Positions 3,376 to 13,676 are shown, counted from the stretch's first letter. The stretch: DNA of 64,000 nt from Thermofilaceae archaeon (GCA_038727095.1 JAVYWK010000001.1:57626-121625); one strand, 5' to 3'. The notes: generated by a model not told the origin, from the letters alone. Program-made: numbers and translations.

Positions 3376-3523
3376 CTTGACCCTCTTACGCCAATCACTA
3401 TAAATTTCGCCATCAAATGAGGTTCCACACATTCTAGCAGTAGAGCGAAGCAATGGTTAACCTGCCACTGAGGATTTGAACGGAAGTTTTTAGCGCAGGC
3501 AGTTCTCCAATTGAAGACTCGCA

Positions 3524-3922
3524 ATGCCCGAGAAAAAGGTGGTTGTGATTGATTCGAGCGCGATAATCGCATGCTTAGAGGATAGGAGGGATCTCTTCGA
3601 AGCACTGAGAGACACTTTCGAAGGGGGTGTGGAAGTCGCCGTGCCCAACGCCGTGCTGGAGGAACTAAAGAAGCTAGCCACGCAGAGTGGGCGCAGGAAG
3701 CTAGCGGCTAAATCAGCGCTACAGCTCCTACAAAGAGGCTCGGATGACATAGTTGTCCGCGTGATTGATGTGGACGCAAAGAGCACTGATGAAGCCCTCC
3801 TGAAACTGTCCATGGAACTGAACGCGTGCCTTATCACTCTTGACAGAGAGCTGCGTAAAACAGCTGAAGCCAAAGGCATAACGGCTCTCACCTACCTCCG
3901 CTCCAAAAAGAGGTTTGGGTGA
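3524..3922 (+). CDS. PIN-domain nuclease (Fcf1/Utp24-like)
   Basis: VIDSS, VLEEL, TDEALL, ITLDRELR acidic PIN motifs. Confidence 0.85.
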   Translation: MPEKKVVVIDSSAIIACLEDRRDLFEALRDTFEGGVEVAVPNAVLEELKKLATQSGRRKLAAKSALQLLQRGSDDIVVRVIDVDAKSTDEALLKLSMELNACLITLDRELRKTAEAKGITALTYLRSKKRFG

Positions 3923-4015: not shown

Positions 4016-4903
4016 ATGAACGCCCAATTCCGTGAAAAATCGCGGAATACTTCGCTCGAGGGCGATAGAAACAGGAGTGCAGGTTGGCGTAAATTCCACG
4101 AAAGGATAACCTCCATTGATTACGCATCCGTGGAGAGAAGAATTGCCAGCTACTTGCGGGAGTACCTTGAAGGGACAGGAGCTGGCTGTTACGTCCTAGG
4201 GCTCAGCGGCGGCATAGACTCGTCGGTTGCGGCCACCCTCGCGGCACGAGCTGTAGAGCCGGAGCGGGTTGTCGCGCTGATAATGCCCGATTCAACCTCC
4301 ACGCCCGGTGAGGATCTGGAGGACGCCAGGTGGCTGGTCCGCCACTTGAGCATCAGGTTCCACGAGGCTCCAATCGACACTCTCGTAGCGGCTGCGTCTA
4401 CGAGCGTGCCTCTCTTCGACCGGACCGATTTGAAGGCGCTGGGTAATCTGAAGGCTAGGATCCGCATGCTGATGCTGTACTACGTTGCTAACAGGCTGGG
4501 GGGGATCGTGCTCGGCAGCGGCGACCGCAGCGAGCTCCTGCTCGGCTACTTCACTAAGTACGGCGATGGGGCTGCCGACCTTCTACCCATCGGAGACCTC
4601 TACAAGAGTCAAGTTCGAGGGCTCGCTAAGCACTTGGGGCTGCCCGACCGGATCGCCCTGAAGCCGAGTAGCCCGAGGCTGTGGCCCGGGCAAATGGCGG
4701 AAAGCGAGTTGGGGTTCACTTACGACGTGGCGGACGTGGTGTTGTACGCCGTTTTCGACCTCGGCTACGCTCCTGAGCGCGTTGTTGAGGAGACGGGAAT
4801 CCCCTTTGAGAAGGTGAGGAGCATCCTGTCCAGGGTGGAGAGCTCAGCCCATAAGCGCCGTTTACCGCCCGTTGTTGAGCTGAAGGGGGTGGCGCACCCG
4901 TAG
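4016..4903 (+). CDS. nadE: NH3-dependent NAD+ synthetase
   Basis: LSGGIDSS PP-loop, GNLKARIRM, GYFTKYGDG, KPSSPRLW. Confidence 0.95.
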   Translation: MNAQFREKSRNTSLEGDRNRSAGWRKFHERITSIDYASVERRIASYLREYLEGTGAGCYVLGLSGGIDSSVAATLAARAVEPERVVALIMPDSTSTPGEDLEDARWLVRHLSIRFHEAPIDTLVAAASTSVPLFDRTDLKALGNLKARIRMLMLYYVANRLGGIVLGSGDRSELLLGYFTKYGDGAADLLPIGDLYKSQVRGLAKHLGLPDRIALKPSSPRLWPGQMAESELGFTYDVADVVLYAVFDLGYAPERVVEETGIPFEKVRSILSRVESSAHKRRLPPVVELKGVAHP

Positions 4904-4904
4904 C

Positions 4905-6185
4905 CTACGCCCGAAGCCAGTAACCCCTCACATCAAGGTCCATCTGCCCGTTGACCTCGCTCTTCGCTAACCGCTCTCCCGACAACACATCCAACAGCGC
5001 TGGGTAGATCGTTTCGACGGCGAGCTCGCGGAGGCTCCTTCCACTGAAGACCTCCTCTACCGGGATGTAGACGTCTATGATGCTGGCCAGCTTAGCGTAG
5101 GTCTCCCTGTTTGCGGTCACCTTCAGGACAGGGCTCACAACGGACCCCGCCGGCGTTCCTAAACCCGTGGTGAAAATGACCGCGTGAGCCCCACCTGCCA
5201 CCATCCCCGTTATCGCTGGGATGTCCTCACCCGGCGAGTCCATCAGGAAGAGGCCGCCCCTCCCCCGCGGGACTTGACGAGCGTACGGGAGGACATCGAG
5301 GATCTTCACGTTTGCGTCGCTGCCGATCTTCAGCACGCTACCGAGAGACTTCTCAGCGAGAGTTGAGATGCCGCTCGCGATGTTGCCGGGGGTCGGGTCC
5401 GTCTCCAACGTGTACTCCGATAGCGCCTCCTTCACAGCGTAGGCTGCCTCGAGCAGCCTCTTCAGCTTCCTGGCTACAGTCTCGTCAGCTACCCTGCTCA
5501 ATAGTAGGCCCTCGCTACCCAGAACCTCAGTTGTTTGACAGAAAACCACGCTGACCCCCTCTCTAACCAGCTTCTCAACGACGTACCCAACAGCCGGGTT
5601 GGCGAAAAGACCCGAAGTTGGGTCAGATGCTCCGTTACCAACCCCTATCACTACGCGCTTGAGCGGGGCGTCTGTCCTCTTCAACGAGCTGGCGCTCTCC
5701 AGCATCCCCCTCACGAACTTCCTGCCGAGTTCTACGACTCTTTCGAAACCGTCCACTGACTCGGGCCACGGCTCCTGTAGGTTCACCCAGCGTACTTCAA
5801 CCCCCCTCTTCACAAGCCTCTCGTAGAGCTTGAACGAGAGGAGGTTCTCCAGCCTACTTTCACCGGAGCCGAGGGGTCTTTTACAAAGCTGCCCGCAGCC
5901 CAGGCTGACGAGCAGTACCCCGTAAACGTTTGGGTGCGAAGCTATGCCGAGCAGGGTTTCGAATGCTACGTCCAGATCGAAGCCGACGTGGCAGCAGCCC
6001 GCGTTGTGGCGCGCCAGGACAACCCTGTTCTCCCCGTGCTCCCCCCACCTCTCACCCTTGAACTCCTCGTACACGAGCTCCGCCAACCTGTTCACGCAGG
6101 GCGTCGTCGGTAGGATTAGGACGTGGTTCCTAACTCCAAACACCTTCCTAGACTCCCTGTAGTAGGCCTGCACCGCTTCGGCCAT
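4905..6185 (-). CDS. UxaA/GarD/SuyB family dehydratase or lyase, large subunit (divergent)
   Basis: GVRNHVLILPT, HNAGCC, VSLGC, GNIASGISTLAEKSLG, MDSPG, FTTGLGTP. Confidence 0.85.
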   Translation of the reverse strand: MAEAVQAYYRESRKVFGVRNHVLILPTTPCVNRLAELVYEEFKGERWGEHGENRVVLARHNAGCCHVGFDLDVAFETLLGIASHPNVYGVLLVSLGCGQLCKRPLGSGESRLENLLSFKLYERLVKRGVEVRWVNLQEPWPESVDGFERVVELGRKFVRGMLESASSLKRTDAPLKRVVIGVGNGASDPTSGLFANPAVGYVVEKLVREGVSVVFCQTTEVLGSEGLLLSRVADETVARKLKRLLEAAYAVKEALSEYTLETDPTPGNIASGISTLAEKSLGSVLKIGSDANVKILDVLPYARQVPRGRGGLFLMDSPGEDIPAITGMVAGGAHAVIFTTGLGTPAGSVVSPVLKVTANRETYAKLASIIDVYIPVEEVFSGRSLRELAVETIYPALLDVLSGERLAKSEVNGQMDLDVRGYWLRA

Positions 6186-6796
6186 CACACCTGCACCCTG
6201 GCGAACTCGATGAAGCTCGAGCGGAGAAACCTGTAGAAGTCCTTCACGAGCCTAACGTATCGCTCGTTGAGCCGGACGCCCGGTGGCGGCTCAACGATGT
6301 TACCCAGCCTTAGGGTGCCCCCCTCTCGAACGGGCGCCACAGCGACCCCCACCTTCGTGCGCGGGGGGAGCTGCCTGAAGAGCGGGTGTGTAGGTCTGAA
6401 GTTCACTCCGACGCGCACGAAATCCCCCCTTTCGAGCCGCGAAGTAGCAGTCCCAAGCACGAAGCCGCCCCTGAGAGCCTTCGGGAGATCGAAGGCAGGG
6501 TCGAGCAGGACGTTCGTGACGTGGACAACGAAGCCCACATCGATGTTGCAGGCGCAGATCCCTATCACGTGGCCGAACTTTCGAACCTCGCTCCCTTCCT
6601 CCAGCTTTTCCAGCGCAACCTTGTGCCACTGAGGGATCGGCACGATCGGCCTAACGCTCCCAACGATGCCTCTGCCCTCCTCGTAAACTGGGTACTCAAC
6701 CCCCTCAGCGAGCGGGGCTAGAGCTGTTCCCACGTTGTCGCGGGCATCAGCCTTGTACACGACCTGTGGTAGAGCCACGTGCGTAAGCTGAGCCAC
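6185..6796 (-). CDS. SAF-domain protein (UxaA/SuyA small-subunit-like, with a second degenerate SAF-like repeat)
   Basis: DNVGTALAPL...IPQWHKVAL...GSEVRKFGHVIG...GFVVHVTNV SAF signature; start uncertain. Confidence 0.8.
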   Translation of the reverse strand: MAQLTHVALPQVVYKADARDNVGTALAPLAEGVEYPVYEEGRGIVGSVRPIVPIPQWHKVALEKLEEGSEVRKFGHVIGICACNIDVGFVVHVTNVLLDPAFDLPKALRGGFVLGTATSRLERGDFVRVGVNFRPTHPLFRQLPPRTKVGVAVAPVREGGTLRLGNIVEPPPGVRLNERYVRLVKDFYRFLRSSFIEFARVQV

Positions 6797-6809
6797 GGGT
6801 AATAACTGT

Positions 6810-8165
6810 TCACTCCAGCTCGAGGCCGAGATCCGCAACGTGCTCTCGCACCCTCCTGTATACGCTGGCCCACCAGGGGGCCGGCTCCCTCCTCTCCAAG
6901 TCGTAGAGCTCGCCGAAGGGGACTCCCGGGTTAGGGTTGCGGAGGCTGCTCTCGTAGAAGCGCAGGAACTCGCCCGCCAGCTCTGCTGCGTGGCTGGGCT
7001 TGAGTGCTGCGGCTGCTGCTCCCACCTCGGCCATGAACATCGCCTCTAAGCCGGAGCCGTGCGGCTTCTCACCGTTAGCCGGTGCAGGTCCCAGCAGGTT
7101 GAGGCCGCAGGAGGCCGCGACAATGGAGTTGGCGGCGATTTCGTACAGCATCTCCGCGCAACCGCCCCCGTTCGCCGGCCACACGTCGCCGACGAGGGGT
7201 ACGCCGAGCCTCTCACCAGCTAAGCCCAGAACCGCCTCAACCCAGAGGCACTCCCTCGCGCTCGTAGCCTTGAGGTGGATGTGGTAGGGGTGCACCAGAA
7301 CGTACGAGGCCCCGTAGGCAACCATCGACGTCAGCGCCTCGGCTACCGCGCAGATCGCTGTGCCGGCCGCCCCCCTAGCGAAGCCGCCGACTATCGGATC
7401 TACCAGAGCCGCGTTGTGAACGCTGTACAGGCGGCCGGTGTGCGCCTTCAGCAGCTGGTCGTAACCCACCTTCATCTCGTTGAGGATCGGGATCAGCTGT
7501 GCATCGCTCCTACGCAGCAGCCCAGAGGCCATAGCGGCAGCGTTGGCTACCGCGCTCGTGCTGCTCTCGCAGGCGAGCAGGTGCAGGCCCGGCCTGCCAG
7601 CCTCCTCGATTGCTTCCCTCAGTAGCCGGATCTCGAGGAGCGTCGCTTCAACTTCGCTGGGGGCCGAGCGGGCAAGGCTTAAGCCAGCCACGCTCGTTAG
7701 ACTGCCGTGGTCGAGAGCGTCGACGAGGGGCTCAAGCGCGTAGCTGAGCGCGCTCGGTTTGAAGATTTCCTCCGGTGTCGGAGTGCCGGCGTAGCCGCCG
7801 AAGACGAAGGGCTTGCCTCCAGAGGCTGGCTTCCTCACGCTGAGAACCCTCGAATCGGCACCTACCCCTAGCCTCACCTCACTCTTGGCCGAGCTTAAAG
7901 CGCCCCGGACTTCCTCCTCGCTCACCCTAGCAGCGCTGCCCAGCTCAACGATGTAGATGCCTATCTCCAGAAGAAGCTGCAAACTAGCCTCAAAAACGTC
8001 TTTAACCATTGAGGGGTCGCTAGGCACCATCTCCCCCGGGTGGTAGACTACCTGGTACTCCCTTTCGAGGTTGGCAATTGCCCGGGAGAGGGATAGGTCG
8101 AAGGCGCGCTGCTCGAGGCGGGAGGCTTGACGCGCCCTCCTCTCAAGCTCGAGGGGTGGTATCAC
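6810..8165 (-). CDS. Monomethylamine:corrinoid methyltransferase MtmB homologue without pyrrolysine
   Basis: AGRPG, LNEMK, PIVGGFARG, HIH, PANG..CAEML, GLEAMFMAEV align to MtmB; open frame with Leu (CTC, 7575-7577) where the amber codon is expected. Confidence 0.85.
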   Translation of the reverse strand: MIPPLELERRARQASRLEQRAFDLSLSRAIANLEREYQVVYHPGEMVPSDPSMVKDVFEASLQLLLEIGIYIVELGSAARVSEEEVRGALSSAKSEVRLGVGADSRVLSVRKPASGGKPFVFGGYAGTPTPEEIFKPSALSYALEPLVDALDHGSLTSVAGLSLARSAPSEVEATLLEIRLLREAIEEAGRPGLHLLACESSTSAVANAAAMASGLLRRSDAQLIPILNEMKVGYDQLLKAHTGRLYSVHNAALVDPIVGGFARGAAGTAICAVAEALTSMVAYGASYVLVHPYHIHLKATSARECLWVEAVLGLAGERLGVPLVGDVWPANGGGCAEMLYEIAANSIVAASCGLNLLGPAPANGEKPHGSGLEAMFMAEVGAAAAALKPSHAAELAGEFLRFYESSLRNPNPGVPFGELYDLERREPAPWWASVYRRVREHVADLGLELE

Positions 8166-8172
8166 GCTCCGC

Positions 8173-10437
8173 CTATGCTTCTCCAGTTATTATAGCTTCG
8201 GCCAGCTCGCCCAGCAGCACGCGTACACCGTAGCTGCGGAAGGGGCTGGGGGGTTCGAACGTGAGGGCGGAGGCTTTCCAGAGGGCCTCCTTACCCGACC
8301 TCCTGGGATCGATTATGTACGTGCGCTCGTACGTGGTGACGACGATCGTCCCATCCAGCGAGAGGAGGGCTGTGGGAGCAACGTCCAGCTCGATGAGACC
8401 CTCGTCGCTCTCCAGCTTCACTGTAGCCCCCATGCGTACCCCCCTACCTCCTACGGGGATCACGTCGATTAGTCGGGCGATTGTCAGCTTGTGCTCCTTA
8501 ATCAGGTGCTTAGCTACGGCGAGCCTGGAGGCCTCGTCGAGCAGAGTCCAGTCCCTGATGATGAGCGGCTCGTCCGGGTTCCTGTAGAGAAGGAGCACGC
8601 GCGGGTTGCTGAGGGGGAAGGGCAGCCTGGCTCTAAGCTCCTTCAACCTCGCGCCGTCCAGCTCCGCCTCCAGCCACGCGCCCCTATCGATCACGCGAAT
8701 TTCGCCGGCATCGATCACTCTCAGGAGAGGGGGAGGATCAGGCCGCTCCCCGAGACCCCCTCTATCCTCGCCCAGCACGCGGCCGTCGCTCATCAGGATT
8801 GTCCGGTTCACGAACTTGTTCAATGTCGGCCTGTGCGATATCGCGACGACGGTCGTGTCCCTCAGGTAGCCGAGGAGCCTCGTTAGGATGACCTCCTCCA
8901 GCTCCACGTGGACGTTGCTCGTCGCTTCGTCGAGGATCAGAACCTTCGGCTTCAGCATCGCGGCTCTCGCTAGGCAGATGAGCTGGCGCTGGCCTCCAGA
9001 GAGGTACTTGCCCTGCTCGCCTACGTCGCTGTCGTAAGCGAGGGGGAGCTCAATGATGAACCGGTGCGCGCCGCACAGCCAGGCCGCGTAGATCATCGAG
9101 ATGGGGTCGGGGTCGTCAACGCCGTAGACGATGTTGTAGGCTACGCTGCCCGGCAGGAGCTGCGGCTCCTGGGGGACGAGAATGATCTGGCCCCTCAAGC
9201 TCGAGAGCTTCACCTTGCGAAGGTCGACCCCGTCGTAGAGCACCCTGCCGCTCGTCGGGTCGAAGAGCCTCACGAGCAGCCTGACCAGGGTCGTCTTACC
9301 CGACCCGTTGGGGCCGACGATCCCGACGACGTCGCCTGGCTTGATCGTGAGGTTGACGCCCTTCAGCACGGGCCTGCCGGGCGTGTACTCGAACCAAACG
9401 TCCTCGATCTCAATTCCGCCCCTAACCTCTAGCTCCACGGCGTCAGGGGCTTCGGAGACCTTCGGCTTTGCCTCGAGGATCTCGGCCAGCTTCTCGTAGG
9501 CTGCTTCAGCCTCGGCCAGCTGGGGGATAAGGCCGGCGATCGCCTGGACCGGGCCGTAAACCTGCCACACGTAGGCTAGGAAGGCGGTCAGGGTGCCGAA
9601 GGTCAGCTCGCCCCGCGTGATTAAGAGCCCGCCCACGAACGTTACTCCGACGGACGCCAGCTGGAGGAGGAAGCCGAGCCAGGGGAAGATCCTACTCGTG
9701 AGCCTGGCCACTTCAACCTCAGCCTCATAGACGTCGCCAGCCATGCTCCCGAAGCGGCGGGCCTCCTCCCTCTCCCTCCCCGTCAGCTTGACTAGGAGGA
9801 CCGCGTTGAAAAGCGAGGATACGTAGGCGGACATCCTGCTCACCCTGCTCCACCTCTTCGTGAAGAGCGTCCGCATCCTGGGTTGGTACCGGATGAGACC
9901 GTAGATGTAGAGAGGGAGGGGTAGCAGCATGATGAGCGCGAGCTTCCAGCTGAGCGCGAAAACCACGACGAGCATGGCAGCCAGCTGGATCGAGTTGAGC
10001 AGAATTGTGGAGAAGCTGTCGAGCACGAACCTCTGCACCCTATCCACGTACCCGTACAGGCGTGTCACAAGGTCCCCCACCTGGGTGGACTGGTACAGCT
10101 CCATGCCGAGCTCCATGGACTTGGAGAACACCATCGAGCGCAGGTCGAGCGCGAACCGGCCGCTTAAGACCTGCTGGTAGTAGCCCCTAAACGCGCCCAG
10201 CGCCGTGGCCACCGCCAGGATCAGAACGAGGACCCCCGAGTAGGCCACGATAACCCCGAAGTCCCCCCTCATGACGCCCTGGTCTATGATGGCCCTCGTA
10301 ACCAGCGGACTAACGATGCCCAAGCTCATGGAGATCAGGGAGAGTAGGAGGACTGCGACAAGCAGCCACCGATGCCGGAACAGTAGGTAGTAGAGGTTAA
10401 TGAACCTGTAGCGCTTCAGAAGCTTGGAGCTGAGCAC
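8173..10437 (-). CDS. ABC exporter (TMD+NBD) with C-terminal DUF1854-like extension
   Basis: Six-TM N-domain, GPNGSGKT, LSGGQRQ, ILDEATS, ISHR; tail ARLPFPLSNP...IRDWTLLDEASR resembles DUF1854. Confidence 0.88.
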   Translation of the reverse strand: MLSSKLLKRYRFINLYYLLFRHRWLLVAVLLLSLISMSLGIVSPLVTRAIIDQGVMRGDFGVIVAYSGVLVLILAVATALGAFRGYYQQVLSGRFALDLRSMVFSKSMELGMELYQSTQVGDLVTRLYGYVDRVQRFVLDSFSTILLNSIQLAAMLVVVFALSWKLALIMLLPLPLYIYGLIRYQPRMRTLFTKRWSRVSRMSAYVSSLFNAVLLVKLTGREREEARRFGSMAGDVYEAEVEVARLTSRIFPWLGFLLQLASVGVTFVGGLLITRGELTFGTLTAFLAYVWQVYGPVQAIAGLIPQLAEAEAAYEKLAEILEAKPKVSEAPDAVELEVRGGIEIEDVWFEYTPGRPVLKGVNLTIKPGDVVGIVGPNGSGKTTLVRLLVRLFDPTSGRVLYDGVDLRKVKLSSLRGQIILVPQEPQLLPGSVAYNIVYGVDDPDPISMIYAAWLCGAHRFIIELPLAYDSDVGEQGKYLSGGQRQLICLARAAMLKPKVLILDEATSNVHVELEEVILTRLLGYLRDTTVVAISHRPTLNKFVNRTILMSDGRVLGEDRGGLGERPDPPPLLRVIDAGEIRVIDRGAWLEAELDGARLKELRARLPFPLSNPRVLLLYRNPDEPLIIRDWTLLDEASRLAVAKHLIKEHKLTIARLIDVIPVGGRGVRMGATVKLESDEGLIELDVAPTALLSLDGTIVVTTYERTYIIDPRRSGKEALWKASALTFEPPSPFRSYGVRVLLGELAEAIITGEA

Positions 10438-10454
10438 GACGTTATAGCGTAAAC

Positions 10455-10470
10455 CGGTTATTTAAACTTC
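10455..10470 (-). promoter_or_regulatory. TATA box for the ABC-MtmB-SAF-UxaA unit
   Basis: Minus strand GAAGTTTAAATAACC about 25 nt upstream of the GTG start, consistent with a leaderless transcript. Confidence 0.55.
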
Positions 10471-10589
10471 ATCTCTAAAGAAAGTTAGTTATGATTGAGG
10501 GCTTTAGGCGCGTATAAAAGAGCTGGATAAGGAGAAGGTAGGCGCCGCTCATAGTTCGGCAGTGTTTACGCCCGAGCGAGTACGAACTC

Positions 10590-13676
<3,087 letters not shown>

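Follow-up and report, generated by a model that had tools for sequence, protein, structure and literature searches.

The four clustered genes analyzed here probably represent three separable functions that have been brought together, with the SAF–UxaA pair as a proposed threonine-type dehydratase, rather than one pathway. The genes lie in a 64,000-nucleotide stretch of DNA from a Thermofilaceae archaeon of hot-spring origin (this whole stretch is referred to as the window) and encode an ABC exporter, an MtmB-family methyltransferase lacking pyrrolysine, and the small and large subunits of a divergent enzyme of the UxaA/GarD family. The original prediction had read them as a single route of demethylation followed by elimination. 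In most genomes the parts are separate, and a member of the same genus carries ABC–SAF–UxaA without MtmB, which argues against that route.

Organization of the cluster

The layout is as originally described: four co-oriented genes downstream of the rRNA operon and behind a TATA-like box (Table 1). The 23S rRNA gene ends at position 10589, and the cluster starts 151 nt downstream of it. The ABC and MtmB ORFs are joined by a TAG stop, 7 nt, and the GTG start of MtmB, and the MtmB and SAF ORFs by a TGA stop, 31 nt, and a GTG. The longest SAF ORF would overlap MtmB by 29 nt; the GTG at 6778 is the likely start, as suggested by the starts of the orthologs. The last junction is a 4-nt overlap (GTGA) between SAF and UxaA.

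Table 1. Positions of the clustered genes and the upstream promoter-like element in the window
Feature	Position	Strand	Size	Remark
TATA-like box TTTAAATA	10466–10459	minus		21 nt upstream of the ABC start codon
ABC exporter-type ORF	10437–8173	minus	754 aa	
MtmB-family ORF	8165–6810	minus	451 aa	
SAF-type small subunit	6778–6185	minus	196 aa	likely start
SAF-type small subunit	6838–6185	minus	217 aa	longest ORF
UxaA/GarD-family large subunit	6188–4905	minus	427 aa	

The spacing between the TATA-like box and the ABC start codon fits a leaderless or near-leaderless transcript. A minus-strand scan of positions 4800–10600 gave one other TATA-like hexamer (10518–10513) and none internal to the cluster. 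The tight spacing of the genes, together with a single suitably placed box and none internal, makes co-transcription, and hence some co-regulation, possible. In a stranded metatranscriptome run (X4; 40 reads placed), approximately 38 reads fell on the ABC and MtmB genes and none on SAF–UxaA, and among the records listed for X1, a contig bridges the ABC/MtmB junction only. The GC content of the four genes (0.60–0.645) is above that of their neighbors, as had been noted, but corresponds to the 62nd–92nd percentile of the 1347 ORFs in the genome, and the genes are therefore not GC outliers.

Properties of the encoded proteins

The ABC protein consists of a transmembrane domain (ABC_membrane, 5e-40, 138.3 bits), an ATPase (ABC_tran, 2e-33, 116.4 bits), and a conserved tail of some 190 residues at the C terminus. 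With its Walker A motif (GPNGSGKT), it has the features of a type I ABC exporter half-transporter. The tail had been labeled DUF1854, a label that could not be sustained because the match to this family (PF08909; 15 bits, E = 0.022, 59 residues) is below the cut-off of 26.8. The model of the tail has a pLDDT of 89, and its best fold match is to the DUF1285 structure 2RE3 (Z = 4.2); profile searches, and fold searches with nothing above this Z value, provided no confident family or fold. In clusters for cyanophycin-like polymers, an ABC exporter and a DUF1854-like domain are fused in a few genomes (bioRxiv 10.1101/072470). The present protein resembles the DUF1854-associated exporters in combining an exporter core with a C-terminal domain similar to DUF1854 and differs from them in the sub-threshold DUF1854 match, in scoring only 324 bits for NF052233 (cut-off 880), and in its context, in which no cyanophycin synthetase was seen.

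The second ORF matches the MtmB family over nearly the whole profile (PF05369; positions 8–450 of 450, 1e-79, 268.9 bits vs. a cut-off of 25), occurs once in the genome, and contains no in-frame stop or TAG. Alignment with MtmB from Methanosarcina barkeri (1L2Q; phmmer, 3e-56 over residues 10–448) places a Leu opposite X202. With a Leu at this position and no UAG codon, a pyrrolysine-dependent MtmB proper was ruled out. The Leu is invariant among the 26 related sequences listed, out of 37 aligned, and the active-site stretch is kept across all groups aligned. Compared with M. barkeri MtmB1 (PDB 1L2Q/1NTH), the protein is homologous over its full length, and the genes of its relatives likewise adjoin one for a cognate corrinoid protein; the differences are the Leu, the separation of mtmB in the window from its corrinoid partner gene, and a non-methanogen host in which MtrH was not found. 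The closest named relative is a Thermofilum sp. MAG, in agreement with the context first proposed. The proposed gene identities hold.

MtmB is a putative MT1 that would methylate a corrinoid protein. A corrinoid protein with a GDLHDIGK motif is encoded on another contig (C12), followed by a gene for a 571-residue RACo; this adjacency occurs in all eight clade genomes examined and also in G012. Profile searches of this genome gave 10 URO-D-type methyltransferase matches over the cut-off and nothing over the cut-off for MtrH, Pterin_bind, and MetE. The gene set of a corrinoid-dependent system (a DxHxxG-containing corrinoid protein, an activator, and MT2 candidates) is complete, and the corrinoid partner assumed in the original prediction is indeed encoded. 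The corrinoid protein was found in 31 of 41 genomes, many of which lack MtmB, and is therefore not a dedicated partner of MtmB.

Most non-pyrrolysine MtmBs in a published tree are labeled “of unknown function,” and according to that paper (PMC13044021) the only one with a demonstrated function is MtqB of Methanococcoides methylutens Q3c, a tetramethylammonium/choline methyltransferase, the substrates being quaternary amines. The paper describes conserved Met, Cys, and aromatic site residues for the MtqB branch. The window protein resembles MtqB in being a pyrrolysine-free family member that would work with a corrinoid protein. Its nearest relatives found outside Thermofilaceae share only about 40% identity with it.

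The third ORF had no Pfam match, Pfam's SAF model included, and matched the N terminus of galactarate dehydratase (TIGR03248, 3.6e-8). Its predicted structure (pLDDT 88.8) matches 3K3S, an N-terminal fragment of altronate hydrolase (Z = 15.2, RMSD = 1.6, 85 residues), and GarD 6U7L (Z = 14.1); a Foldseek search gave a supporting match at 8e-6. Because the model matches 3K3S despite the missing Pfam match, the SAF label given to this ORF is right by fold. The model comprises a β-clip N-domain, an inserted second β-clip-like segment, and a C-terminal helix. The N-terminal SAF/β-clip domain of the UxaA/GarD superfamily (COG2721) is thus supplied by a separate small subunit.

The large subunit contains both GD_AH_second (9e-23, 81.3 bits) and GD_AH_C (2e-60, 204.9 bits), each over its cut-off, and aligns to residues 10–410 of Escherichia coli GarD (6U7L). 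The divergent motifs GNGASD and QTTE, already recognized in the original prediction, stand opposite QCGGSD and SEVTE, respectively; among 151 family representatives, the first motif column holds Cys in 138 and Asn in 12, and the second holds Glu in 139 and Gln in 11. Four conserved cysteines have been proposed as iron ligands in the superfamily (PMC6336799). Three are kept (C31, C65, and C98), and the canonical set is incomplete, the fourth Cys (that of CGGSD) being replaced by Asn185, which is invariant in a subfamily of 28 sequences. By sequence, SAF–UxaA is a small, uncharacterized subfamily with an altered set of predicted metal-binding cysteines. The pair shares both Pfam domains and the N-domain fold with the UxaA/GarD dehydratases (altronate, galactarate, D-arabinonate, and idonate; GarD 6U7L) and differs from them in being split into two genes, in its small subunit of about 195 residues with an inserted segment, in Asn for the fourth Cys and Gln (Gln218) for the Glu of E-x-x-E, and in two extra cysteines (Cys66 and Cys102). 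SuyAB, the (2R)-sulfolactate sulfo-lyase of the same superfamily, is similar in having small and large subunits encoded by two genes and in departing from the Cys set, the conserved cysteines being absent according to the same paper. No sulfonate-related neighbors were seen.

Possible association of SAF–UxaA with threonine metabolism

Across the class (120 genomes), the UxaA variant occurs in 12 genomes, and the IlvA-type threonine ammonia-lyase (TIGR01127) occurs in none of these 12 and in 89 of the 108 others; 19 of the 120 genomes have neither. This complementary pattern comes from three separate lineages only (f1, f5, and f12). On contig C41 of the genome studied here, ridA follows pfkB after 25 nt at a locus that reads pfkB–ilvA–ridA in relatives, and the same clean gap is found in G009 and G011. 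Genes for ThrRS and/or Sua5 lie within 3.4 kb in 16 of the 23 subfamily loci that are more distant, with differing gene orders and two ThrRS architectures. Together, the complementarity with IlvA, the ilvA gap, and the ThrRS/Sua5 neighbors suggest that SAF–UxaA is a candidate PLP-independent threonine dehydratase replacing IlvA. The likeness to the PLP-dependent IlvA/TdcB-type enzyme would lie in the proposed role only, the pfkB–ridA locus being retained; the two are unrelated in sequence and fold, and the chemistry of SAF–UxaA would need a metal rather than PLP. To our knowledge, no UxaA/GarD member acts on an amino acid.

A less probable reading, which we nevertheless take seriously, is that SAF–UxaA is a conventional enzyme of its family, that is, a sugar-acid or 2,3-dihydroxy-acid dehydratase or a SuyAB-like sulfo-lyase, and that the IlvA pattern and the ThrRS/Sua5 neighbors are coincidental or due to shared ancestry. 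The Pfam domains and fold are canonical, SuyAB is likewise split and, according to PMC6336799, devoid of the conserved cysteines, and all characterized members act on hydroxy acids or sulfolactate (PMC6336799). The small number of independent lineages behind the IlvA pattern also speaks for this reading. The gene preceding SAF in G346 scores 269 bits as threonine 3-dehydrogenase and 232 bits as idonate 5-dehydrogenase and also resembles inosose dehydrogenases; since the two scores are similar and both below their cut-offs, they leave room for a sugar-acid role. Against this reading stand the absence of IlvA from every genome with the variant, the deletion of ilvA in place with ridA kept, and the recurrence of ThrRS or Sua5 in several gene orders. 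In addition, we noticed no genes for sugar-acid catabolism next to SAF–UxaA in the loci inspected, and its fixed metal and acid residues are not those of the canonical family.

Separate occurrence of the genes and relocation of mtmB

The distribution of the genes was assessed in 41 genomes, namely, the genome containing the window (G000) and 40 relatives. MtmB is present in 19 and the UxaA variant in 11; MtmB occurs without the variant in 11 genomes, and in genus g7, where MtmB orthologs are at work, none of the eight genomes yielded the variant. Conversely, SAF–UxaA occurs without an MtmB match in G012, G026, and G033, and also in G346. Full-length ABC orthologs also occur in G027 and G029, two genomes that yielded no MtmB and no UxaA variant. 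In G004, which belongs to the same genus as the window, ABC–SAF–UxaA are contiguous, and MtmB is split and on another contig; in G011, the ABC gene and MtmB are divergently oriented.

MtmB adjoins SAF–UxaA in seven genomes of three genera (G000–G003, G009, G011, and G014). The corrinoid gene adjoins MtmB in G010, G015, G017–G020, and G024, with two genes between them in G007, and all 17 outgroup loci read Corr–MtmB–MtmB2. Among 35 UxaA-subfamily loci from metagenomes, 12 have MtmB, all with UxaA at least 69% identical to that of the window; MtmB is absent from the 21 loci at or below 68% identity, 15 of which extend at least 2 kb upstream. In a quick tree, the 11 MtmBs that lie beside UxaA group together as one clade (SH-aLRT 100) nested among the corrinoid-adjacent MtmBs. 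The linkage between MtmB and UxaA, expected from the original prediction to recur across relatives, is thus one event in one clade, and the parts mostly occur apart. The branch leading to this clade is long (0.47), and the clade has its own Cys two residues after the pyrrolysine-equivalent Leu (10/10 sequences), features that could reflect a substrate change after the move.

The single pathway originally proposed would comprise transport of a substrate, N-demethylation by MtmB via the corrinoid protein, and β-elimination on the product by SAF–UxaA. The compact co-oriented layout behind one suitably placed TATA-like box would suit it, as would the presence of the corrinoid protein, activator, and MT2 candidates in the genome and the distinctive Cys and long stem branch of the relocated MtmB. 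Adjacency retained in three genera and 12 metagenome loci also counts against separable functions; however, synteny in the same genomes extends into NadE, a CobW-like gene, and an arginase-family gene, and the conserved adjacency is therefore no specific evidence of coupling. Given that MtmB occurs without the UxaA variant, SAF–UxaA without MtmB (also in the 21 metagenome loci), and ABC orthologs without either, that the arrangement differs in G004 and G011, that the adjacency arose only once, and that the reads of run X4 fell on one half of the cluster, we consider a single pathway improbable. No characterized pathway had been known to join these enzymes, and we likewise found no paper that links a monomethylamine methyltransferase to an altronate dehydratase. 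The suggestion that the elimination acts on an amino acid may hold for threonine, given the IlvA pattern and the ThrRS/Sua5 neighbors, but not for a demethylated product. Very improbable is a looser coupling, in which mtmB was recruited beside SAF–UxaA for shared regulation in amino-acid or osmolyte catabolism (e.g., an N-methylated hydroxy amino acid yielding threonine) and the enzymes are independent in other lineages: the short gaps over three genera, the threonine link, and the action on quaternary amines of the first non-pyrrolysine MtmB with a shown function (PMC13044021) would fit, but the arrangement goes back to a single event, was lost in G004, and shows unequal read coverage of its two halves.

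We thus favor three functions brought together, the first being the ABC exporter with its C-terminal tail. The data show what the genes encode, that they are separable, that mtmB relocated once, and that the variant and IlvA are distributed in a complementary way; all substrates and any co-transcription are inferred. The pyrrolysine-free MtmB would most likely move a methyl group from a methylated substrate onto the single corrinoid protein encoded on C12, which the RACo-type activator encoded next to it would keep active and one of the ten URO-D-type methyltransferases would unload. The mtmB gene moved once, in an ancestor of the three Thermofilaceae genera, from the side of the corrinoid gene to a spot between the ABC gene and SAF–UxaA. 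The split SAF–UxaA lyase would depend on iron instead of PLP and dehydrate L-threonine or a closely related β-hydroxy acid, with 2-oxobutanoate as the proposed product, and would replace the IlvA-type threonine ammonia-lyase lost from these genomes. If this is true, SAF–UxaA would stand in for the usual threonine-degrading enzyme as a new, iron-dependent replacement.

The four-gene cluster

The window corresponds to C1:57626–121625 (C, contig) of the source genome, G000, an assembly of 1.86 Mb that is 92% complete. The source is archaeal; judged by its MtmB gene, the nearest relative with a name is a MAG of Thermofilum sp. (80% identity). The four co-oriented genes of the original prediction, encoding an ABC exporter, MtmB, SAF (small subunit), and UxaA (large subunit), were confirmed downstream of the rRNA operon, on the same strand as the 16S and 23S rRNA genes and directly after them. 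ABC and MtmB are separated by a 7-nt gap and MtmB and SAF by a 31-nt gap, when GTG 6778, chosen from orthologues, is taken as the SAF start; SAF and UxaA overlap by 4 nt.

Positions of the rRNA genes and the cluster genes in the window
Feature	Position	Strand	Size	Domain evidence
16S rRNA gene	15352–13842	minus		
23S rRNA gene	13677–10589	minus		
ABC gene	10437–8173	minus	754 aa	ABC_membrane and ABC_tran
MtmB	8165–6810	minus	451 aa	PF05369 (1e-79); internal stop absent
SAF small subunit	6838 or 6778–6185	minus		galactarate dehydratase N-terminus (3.6e-8); Pfam match absent
UxaA large subunit	6188–4905	minus	427 aa	GD_AH_second and GD_AH_C

A TATA-like box, TTTAAATA, is located 21 nt 5′ of the ABC start codon, and a sequence scan of the interior of the cluster revealed no TATA-like hexamer. 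The cluster may be cotranscribed from one promoter. The high GC content ascribed to these genes (0.60–0.645) does exceed that of their local neighbors but lies inside the genome range, at the 62nd to 92nd percentile of 1347 ORFs; because this holds for all four genes, horizontal transfer was rejected as the source of the higher GC content.

A stranded hot-spring metatranscriptome (X4), of which about 5% was sampled, yielded 40 matching reads. Approximately 38 of these fell on ABC and MtmB, oriented as expected for minus-strand RNA, and two, oppositely oriented, fell on NadE. None of the 40 matched SAF–UxaA (5020–6811), a hint that the two halves of the cluster occur at unequal RNA levels, although the numbers are small and the coverage of ABC–MtmB is itself patchy. 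The cluster's transcribed strand has a single five-T run (7992–7996), located inside the MtmB coding region, and X4 depth is zero in the bin that follows it (7484–7931) and then resumes, at read numbers too small to interpret. Runs X2 and X3 gave no matching reads and so carry no weight either way. Run X1 consists of contigs of a related strain (95–99% identity) and carries no transcript information.

Distribution and origin of the gene order

Among 41 genomes (G000 and 40 relatives), 19 gave an MtmB match and 11 contain the UxaA variant, that is, UxaA of the N/Q subfamily, with Asn185 for the fourth conserved Cys and Gln218 for Glu. The order MtmB–SAF–UxaA occurs in seven genomes (G000–G003, G009, G011, where the ABC gene is divergent, and G014). 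Eight genomes have a corrinoid gene beside or near MtmB (G010, G015, G017–G020, G024, and, with two genes between, G007), and in the remaining four MtmB genomes (G004, G005, G006, and G021) contexts differ or contigs are too short to tell. SAF–UxaA occurs without an MtmB match in G012, G026, and G033. G004, a member of the window's genus, has the order ABC–SAF–UxaA–NadE–CobW-like–arginase, with MtmB absent from between. Its MtmB is found on a separate contig (L058; G004:C148:4924–6218), broken into two ORFs (161 and 258 residues) in different frames, at a contig coverage of approximately 3x that makes an assembly error possible; the split gene overlaps by 4 nt with the end of an upstream gene for a 562-residue double ABC ATPase.

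MtmB homologues were detected in 56 of 401 genomes sampled from the phylum, and all 17 loci examined outside the family show the order Corr–MtmB–MtmB2 (Corr, corrinoid gene). When metagenomes were searched with a profile of the UxaA subfamily, 35 subfamily loci emerged: MtmB is located 5′ of SAF in 12, all with a UxaA at least 69% identical to that of the window; two are of the G004 type; and 21 are without MtmB, 15 of these with 2 kb or more of sequence on the upstream side. In a quick maximum-likelihood tree, the 11 MtmBs adjacent to UxaA group as a single clade (SH-aLRT 100) that lies within the corrinoid-adjacent MtmBs, and for the former RACo, in place of MtmB, comes after the corrinoid gene. 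The simplest history is a single relocation of mtmB. In genomes with the adjacency, synteny continues through NadE, the CobW-like gene, and the arginase-family gene, and since gene order is kept that far, the adjacency reflects general synteny and is no sign of a common pathway. Our preferred reading of the cluster is that of three modules brought together by one relocation, and we are confident that these modules are separable.

The assignment of the ABC tail to DUF1854 did not hold, the match being below threshold (15 bits versus 26.8). Foldseek and VIA-align on a model of the tail gave nothing better than E 0.016 or Z 4.2; no new fold is claimed. G027 and G029 also have full-length ABC orthologues, but neither MtmB nor the UxaA variant was found in these two genomes. 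A paralogous ABC exporter outside the window (G000:C1:31254–32900; 35% identity over the core) has an open frame of about 750 residues and hence a long C-terminal tail as well; the long-tailed architecture recurs across the order, and the paralogue is present in many relatives.

MtmB and the corrinoid system

Alignment places a Leu opposite the pyrrolysine of M. barkeri MtmB, and all the related sequences listed share this Leu. Pyrrolysine-free MtmB homologues with a hydrophobic residue at this site were noted already in a 2010 review, and PMC13044021 presents MtqB (tetramethylammonium, choline) as the only such MtmB with a demonstrated function. The literature listed on corrinoid methyltransferases and Thermofilum included nothing specific, and the mlp gene-cluster preprint (PMC10418091) mentions neither MtmB, UxaA, nor Thermofilum. 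Two residues past the Leu, the window's MtmB has a Cys (in LLACESS; 7563–7565) that is present in 10 of 10 relocated-clade MtmBs and is replaced by Ala or Gly in corrinoid-adjacent and outgroup sequences. Apart from this active-site-near Cys, fixed differences between the relocated and corrinoid-adjacent clades are confined to positions 125 and 251. These are too few to support a new function, and we therefore claim none.

G000 encodes a single corrinoid protein (216 residues, with GDLHDIGK) on C12, directly followed by a 571-residue RACo-type activator, and contains 10 URO-D-family matches over the cut-off; in the same genome, a profile search gave no MtrH, pterin-binding domain, or MetE over the cut-off. 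Of the 41 related genomes, 31 yielded the corrinoid protein, many of them without MtmB. This protein probably also serves the URO-D enzymes. The ten URO-D (MtaA/MtbA-like) genes are spread over ten contigs (e.g., C34:8542–9588, C33:15643–16413, and C1:19999–20739) of this 1.86-Mb non-methanogen, which has just one corrinoid protein and one RACo. The Thermofilaceae non-Pyl MtmB is thereby set in a wider corrinoid methyl-transfer system, in which ten URO-D paralogues stand alongside the one corrinoid protein and its one activator.

The original prediction proposed one pathway, in which demethylation by MtmB is followed by elimination by SAF–UxaA. The corrinoid partner that this requires is indeed encoded, with RACo and URO-D genes, which leaves the idea unrefuted on that point; with an MtmB–SAF–UxaA linkage that is derived and local, however, the single pathway is unsupported and we regard it as very improbable.

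Elsewhere in the phylum, family f22 (L069–L084; genomes of 1–1.5 Mb) has Corr–MtmB–MtmB2 loci with two tandem pyrrolysine-free MtmB paralogues, and three f22 genomes carry an additional MtmB copy with one in-frame TAG. At locus L032 (G007:C21:5849–12159), the two genes between the corrinoid gene and MtmB, read by eye, are a 162-residue ORF with a GCGDG motif, typical of SAM-dependent methyltransferases, and a 355-residue ORF. Further on are a convergent RACo gene and a 328-residue ORF whose N-terminus resembles MetE, by eye only.

The UxaA variant and threonine

Two things are new here: a small UxaA subfamily, so far uncharacterized, and the link between this subfamily and threonine. The predicted GNGASD and QTTE motifs are present in the window's UxaA and align to QCGGSD and SEVTE of GarD. 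Among 151 family representatives, Asn replaces the Cys of CGGSD in 12 and Gln replaces the first Glu of E-x-x-E in 11; the N/Q sequences also carry GCC and LGCGQxC. In 28 subfamily sequences, C31, C65, C98, N185, Q218, and E221 are invariant, with C66 and C102 conserved to 90% or more. Watanabe et al. (PMC6336799) describe four Cys, proposed as ligands of one iron, that the superfamily retains throughout, SuyAB excepted; in contrast, the fourth is Asn in the window's UxaA. The model of the small subunit (pLDDT 88.8) matches the N-terminal domain of altronate hydrolase (Z 15.2) and GarD (Z 14.1), and contains an inserted segment that, in the model, bears a weak likeness to a second β-clip.

Named N/Q members come from Thermofilaceae, "Thermoprotei," and Korarchaeota, plus one partial Planctomycetota protein, and carry no annotation beyond UxaA family or hypothetical. 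In a tblastn search with the large subunit, the 60 of 469 plasmid matches listed are named UxaA/altronate, galactarate, or galactonate dehydratase or "dehydratase," or are unannotated; the name sulfolactate sulfo-lyase is absent among these 60.

ThrRS and/or Sua5, the latter being threonylcarbamoyl-AMP synthase, lie at most 3.4 kb away in 16 (L054, L055, L102, L104, L106–L114, L116, L117, and L119) of the 23 subfamily loci that are at most 63% identical to the window. ThrRS is immediately 5′ on the same strand in two locus groups, with differing architectures (tRNA-Thr_ED versus tRNA_SAD); further arrangements are Sua5–ThrRS–SAF–UxaA, ThrRS–Sua5–SAF–UxaA, ThrRS 3′ of SAF–UxaA, and a convergent Sua5. 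In G000 itself, ThrRS is on C3 and Sua5 on C6. Among the papers listed, none connects UxaA or altronate dehydratase to ThrRS or Sua5.

All 120 available genomes of the class were searched for IlvA-type proteins (PLP-dependent threonine ammonia-lyase; TIGR01127, E ≤ 1e-50). None was found in the 12 genomes with the UxaA variant, versus 89 of the 108 genomes where the variant was not found (19 gave no IlvA-type match). A Fisher test on these counts gives 1.3e-8 when kin are counted as if independent. Since they are not, the honest count is three lineages, namely, a sub-clade of family f1, both f5 genomes, and one of four f12 genomes, the other three having IlvA; three out of three against the background of 19/108 corresponds to approximately 0.005.

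In relatives, the gene order is pfkB–ilvA–ridA. On C41 of G000 (C41:2589–3909, outside the window), pfkB ends at 3515 and ridA starts at 3541, with 25 nt between them and flanks as in G006. The same clean gap occurs in G009 and G011, the gap in G012 is 288 nt, G026 keeps ridA, and no ridA was found in G346. The loss of ilvA is thus real and no assembly gap: the gene has been cleanly removed, and the enamine/imine deaminase gene ridA retained. The best residual TIGR01127 match in G000 is to a protein resembling threonine synthase. Neither IlvC nor IlvD was found in G000 (92% complete), for which reason isoleucine biosynthesis was rejected as the role of the dehydratase and the lost IlvA function was probably catabolic.

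The SAF–UxaA variant would stand in place of IlvA as a non-orthologous replacement. Distribution and context suggest that it most likely supplies the threonine dehydratase step or a near-equivalent route to 2-oxobutanoate. We know of no UxaA/GarD enzyme with an amino acid as substrate. In G346, a zinc-dependent dehydrogenase gene lies directly 5′ of SAF (L179; G346:C20, 5457–6500); its product scores best as L-threonine 3-dehydrogenase (269 bits, cut-off 458), with inosose and idonate dehydrogenases nearly equal, so that its assignment among the three is ambiguous.

Taken whole, separate modules plus a threonine role form an explanation that we moderately favor. That the variant is itself a threonine dehydratase has, in our estimate, slightly less than an even chance. 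More tentative still is the fuller proposal that N/Q SAF–UxaA is a threonine dehydratase using iron, not PLP, on a sugar-acid dehydratase fold with a rebuilt Cys site. Among hyperthermophilic archaea it would have taken the place of IlvA on three or more occasions, and in other lineages it would accompany ThrRS and Sua5. In its boldest version, the proposal has the single relocation of mtmB in this clade link the SAF–UxaA dehydratase to an N-methylated hydroxy amino acid, which would be demethylated in a corrinoid-dependent step.

The cluster provides a natural example of tight, co-oriented, operon-like spacing that does not amount to one pathway. Among serine dehydratases, iron–sulfur and PLP types coexist. 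If the threonine role is true, a sugar-acid dehydratase family would have acquired an amino-acid substrate, and a central catabolic step would have a second, PLP-independent solution.
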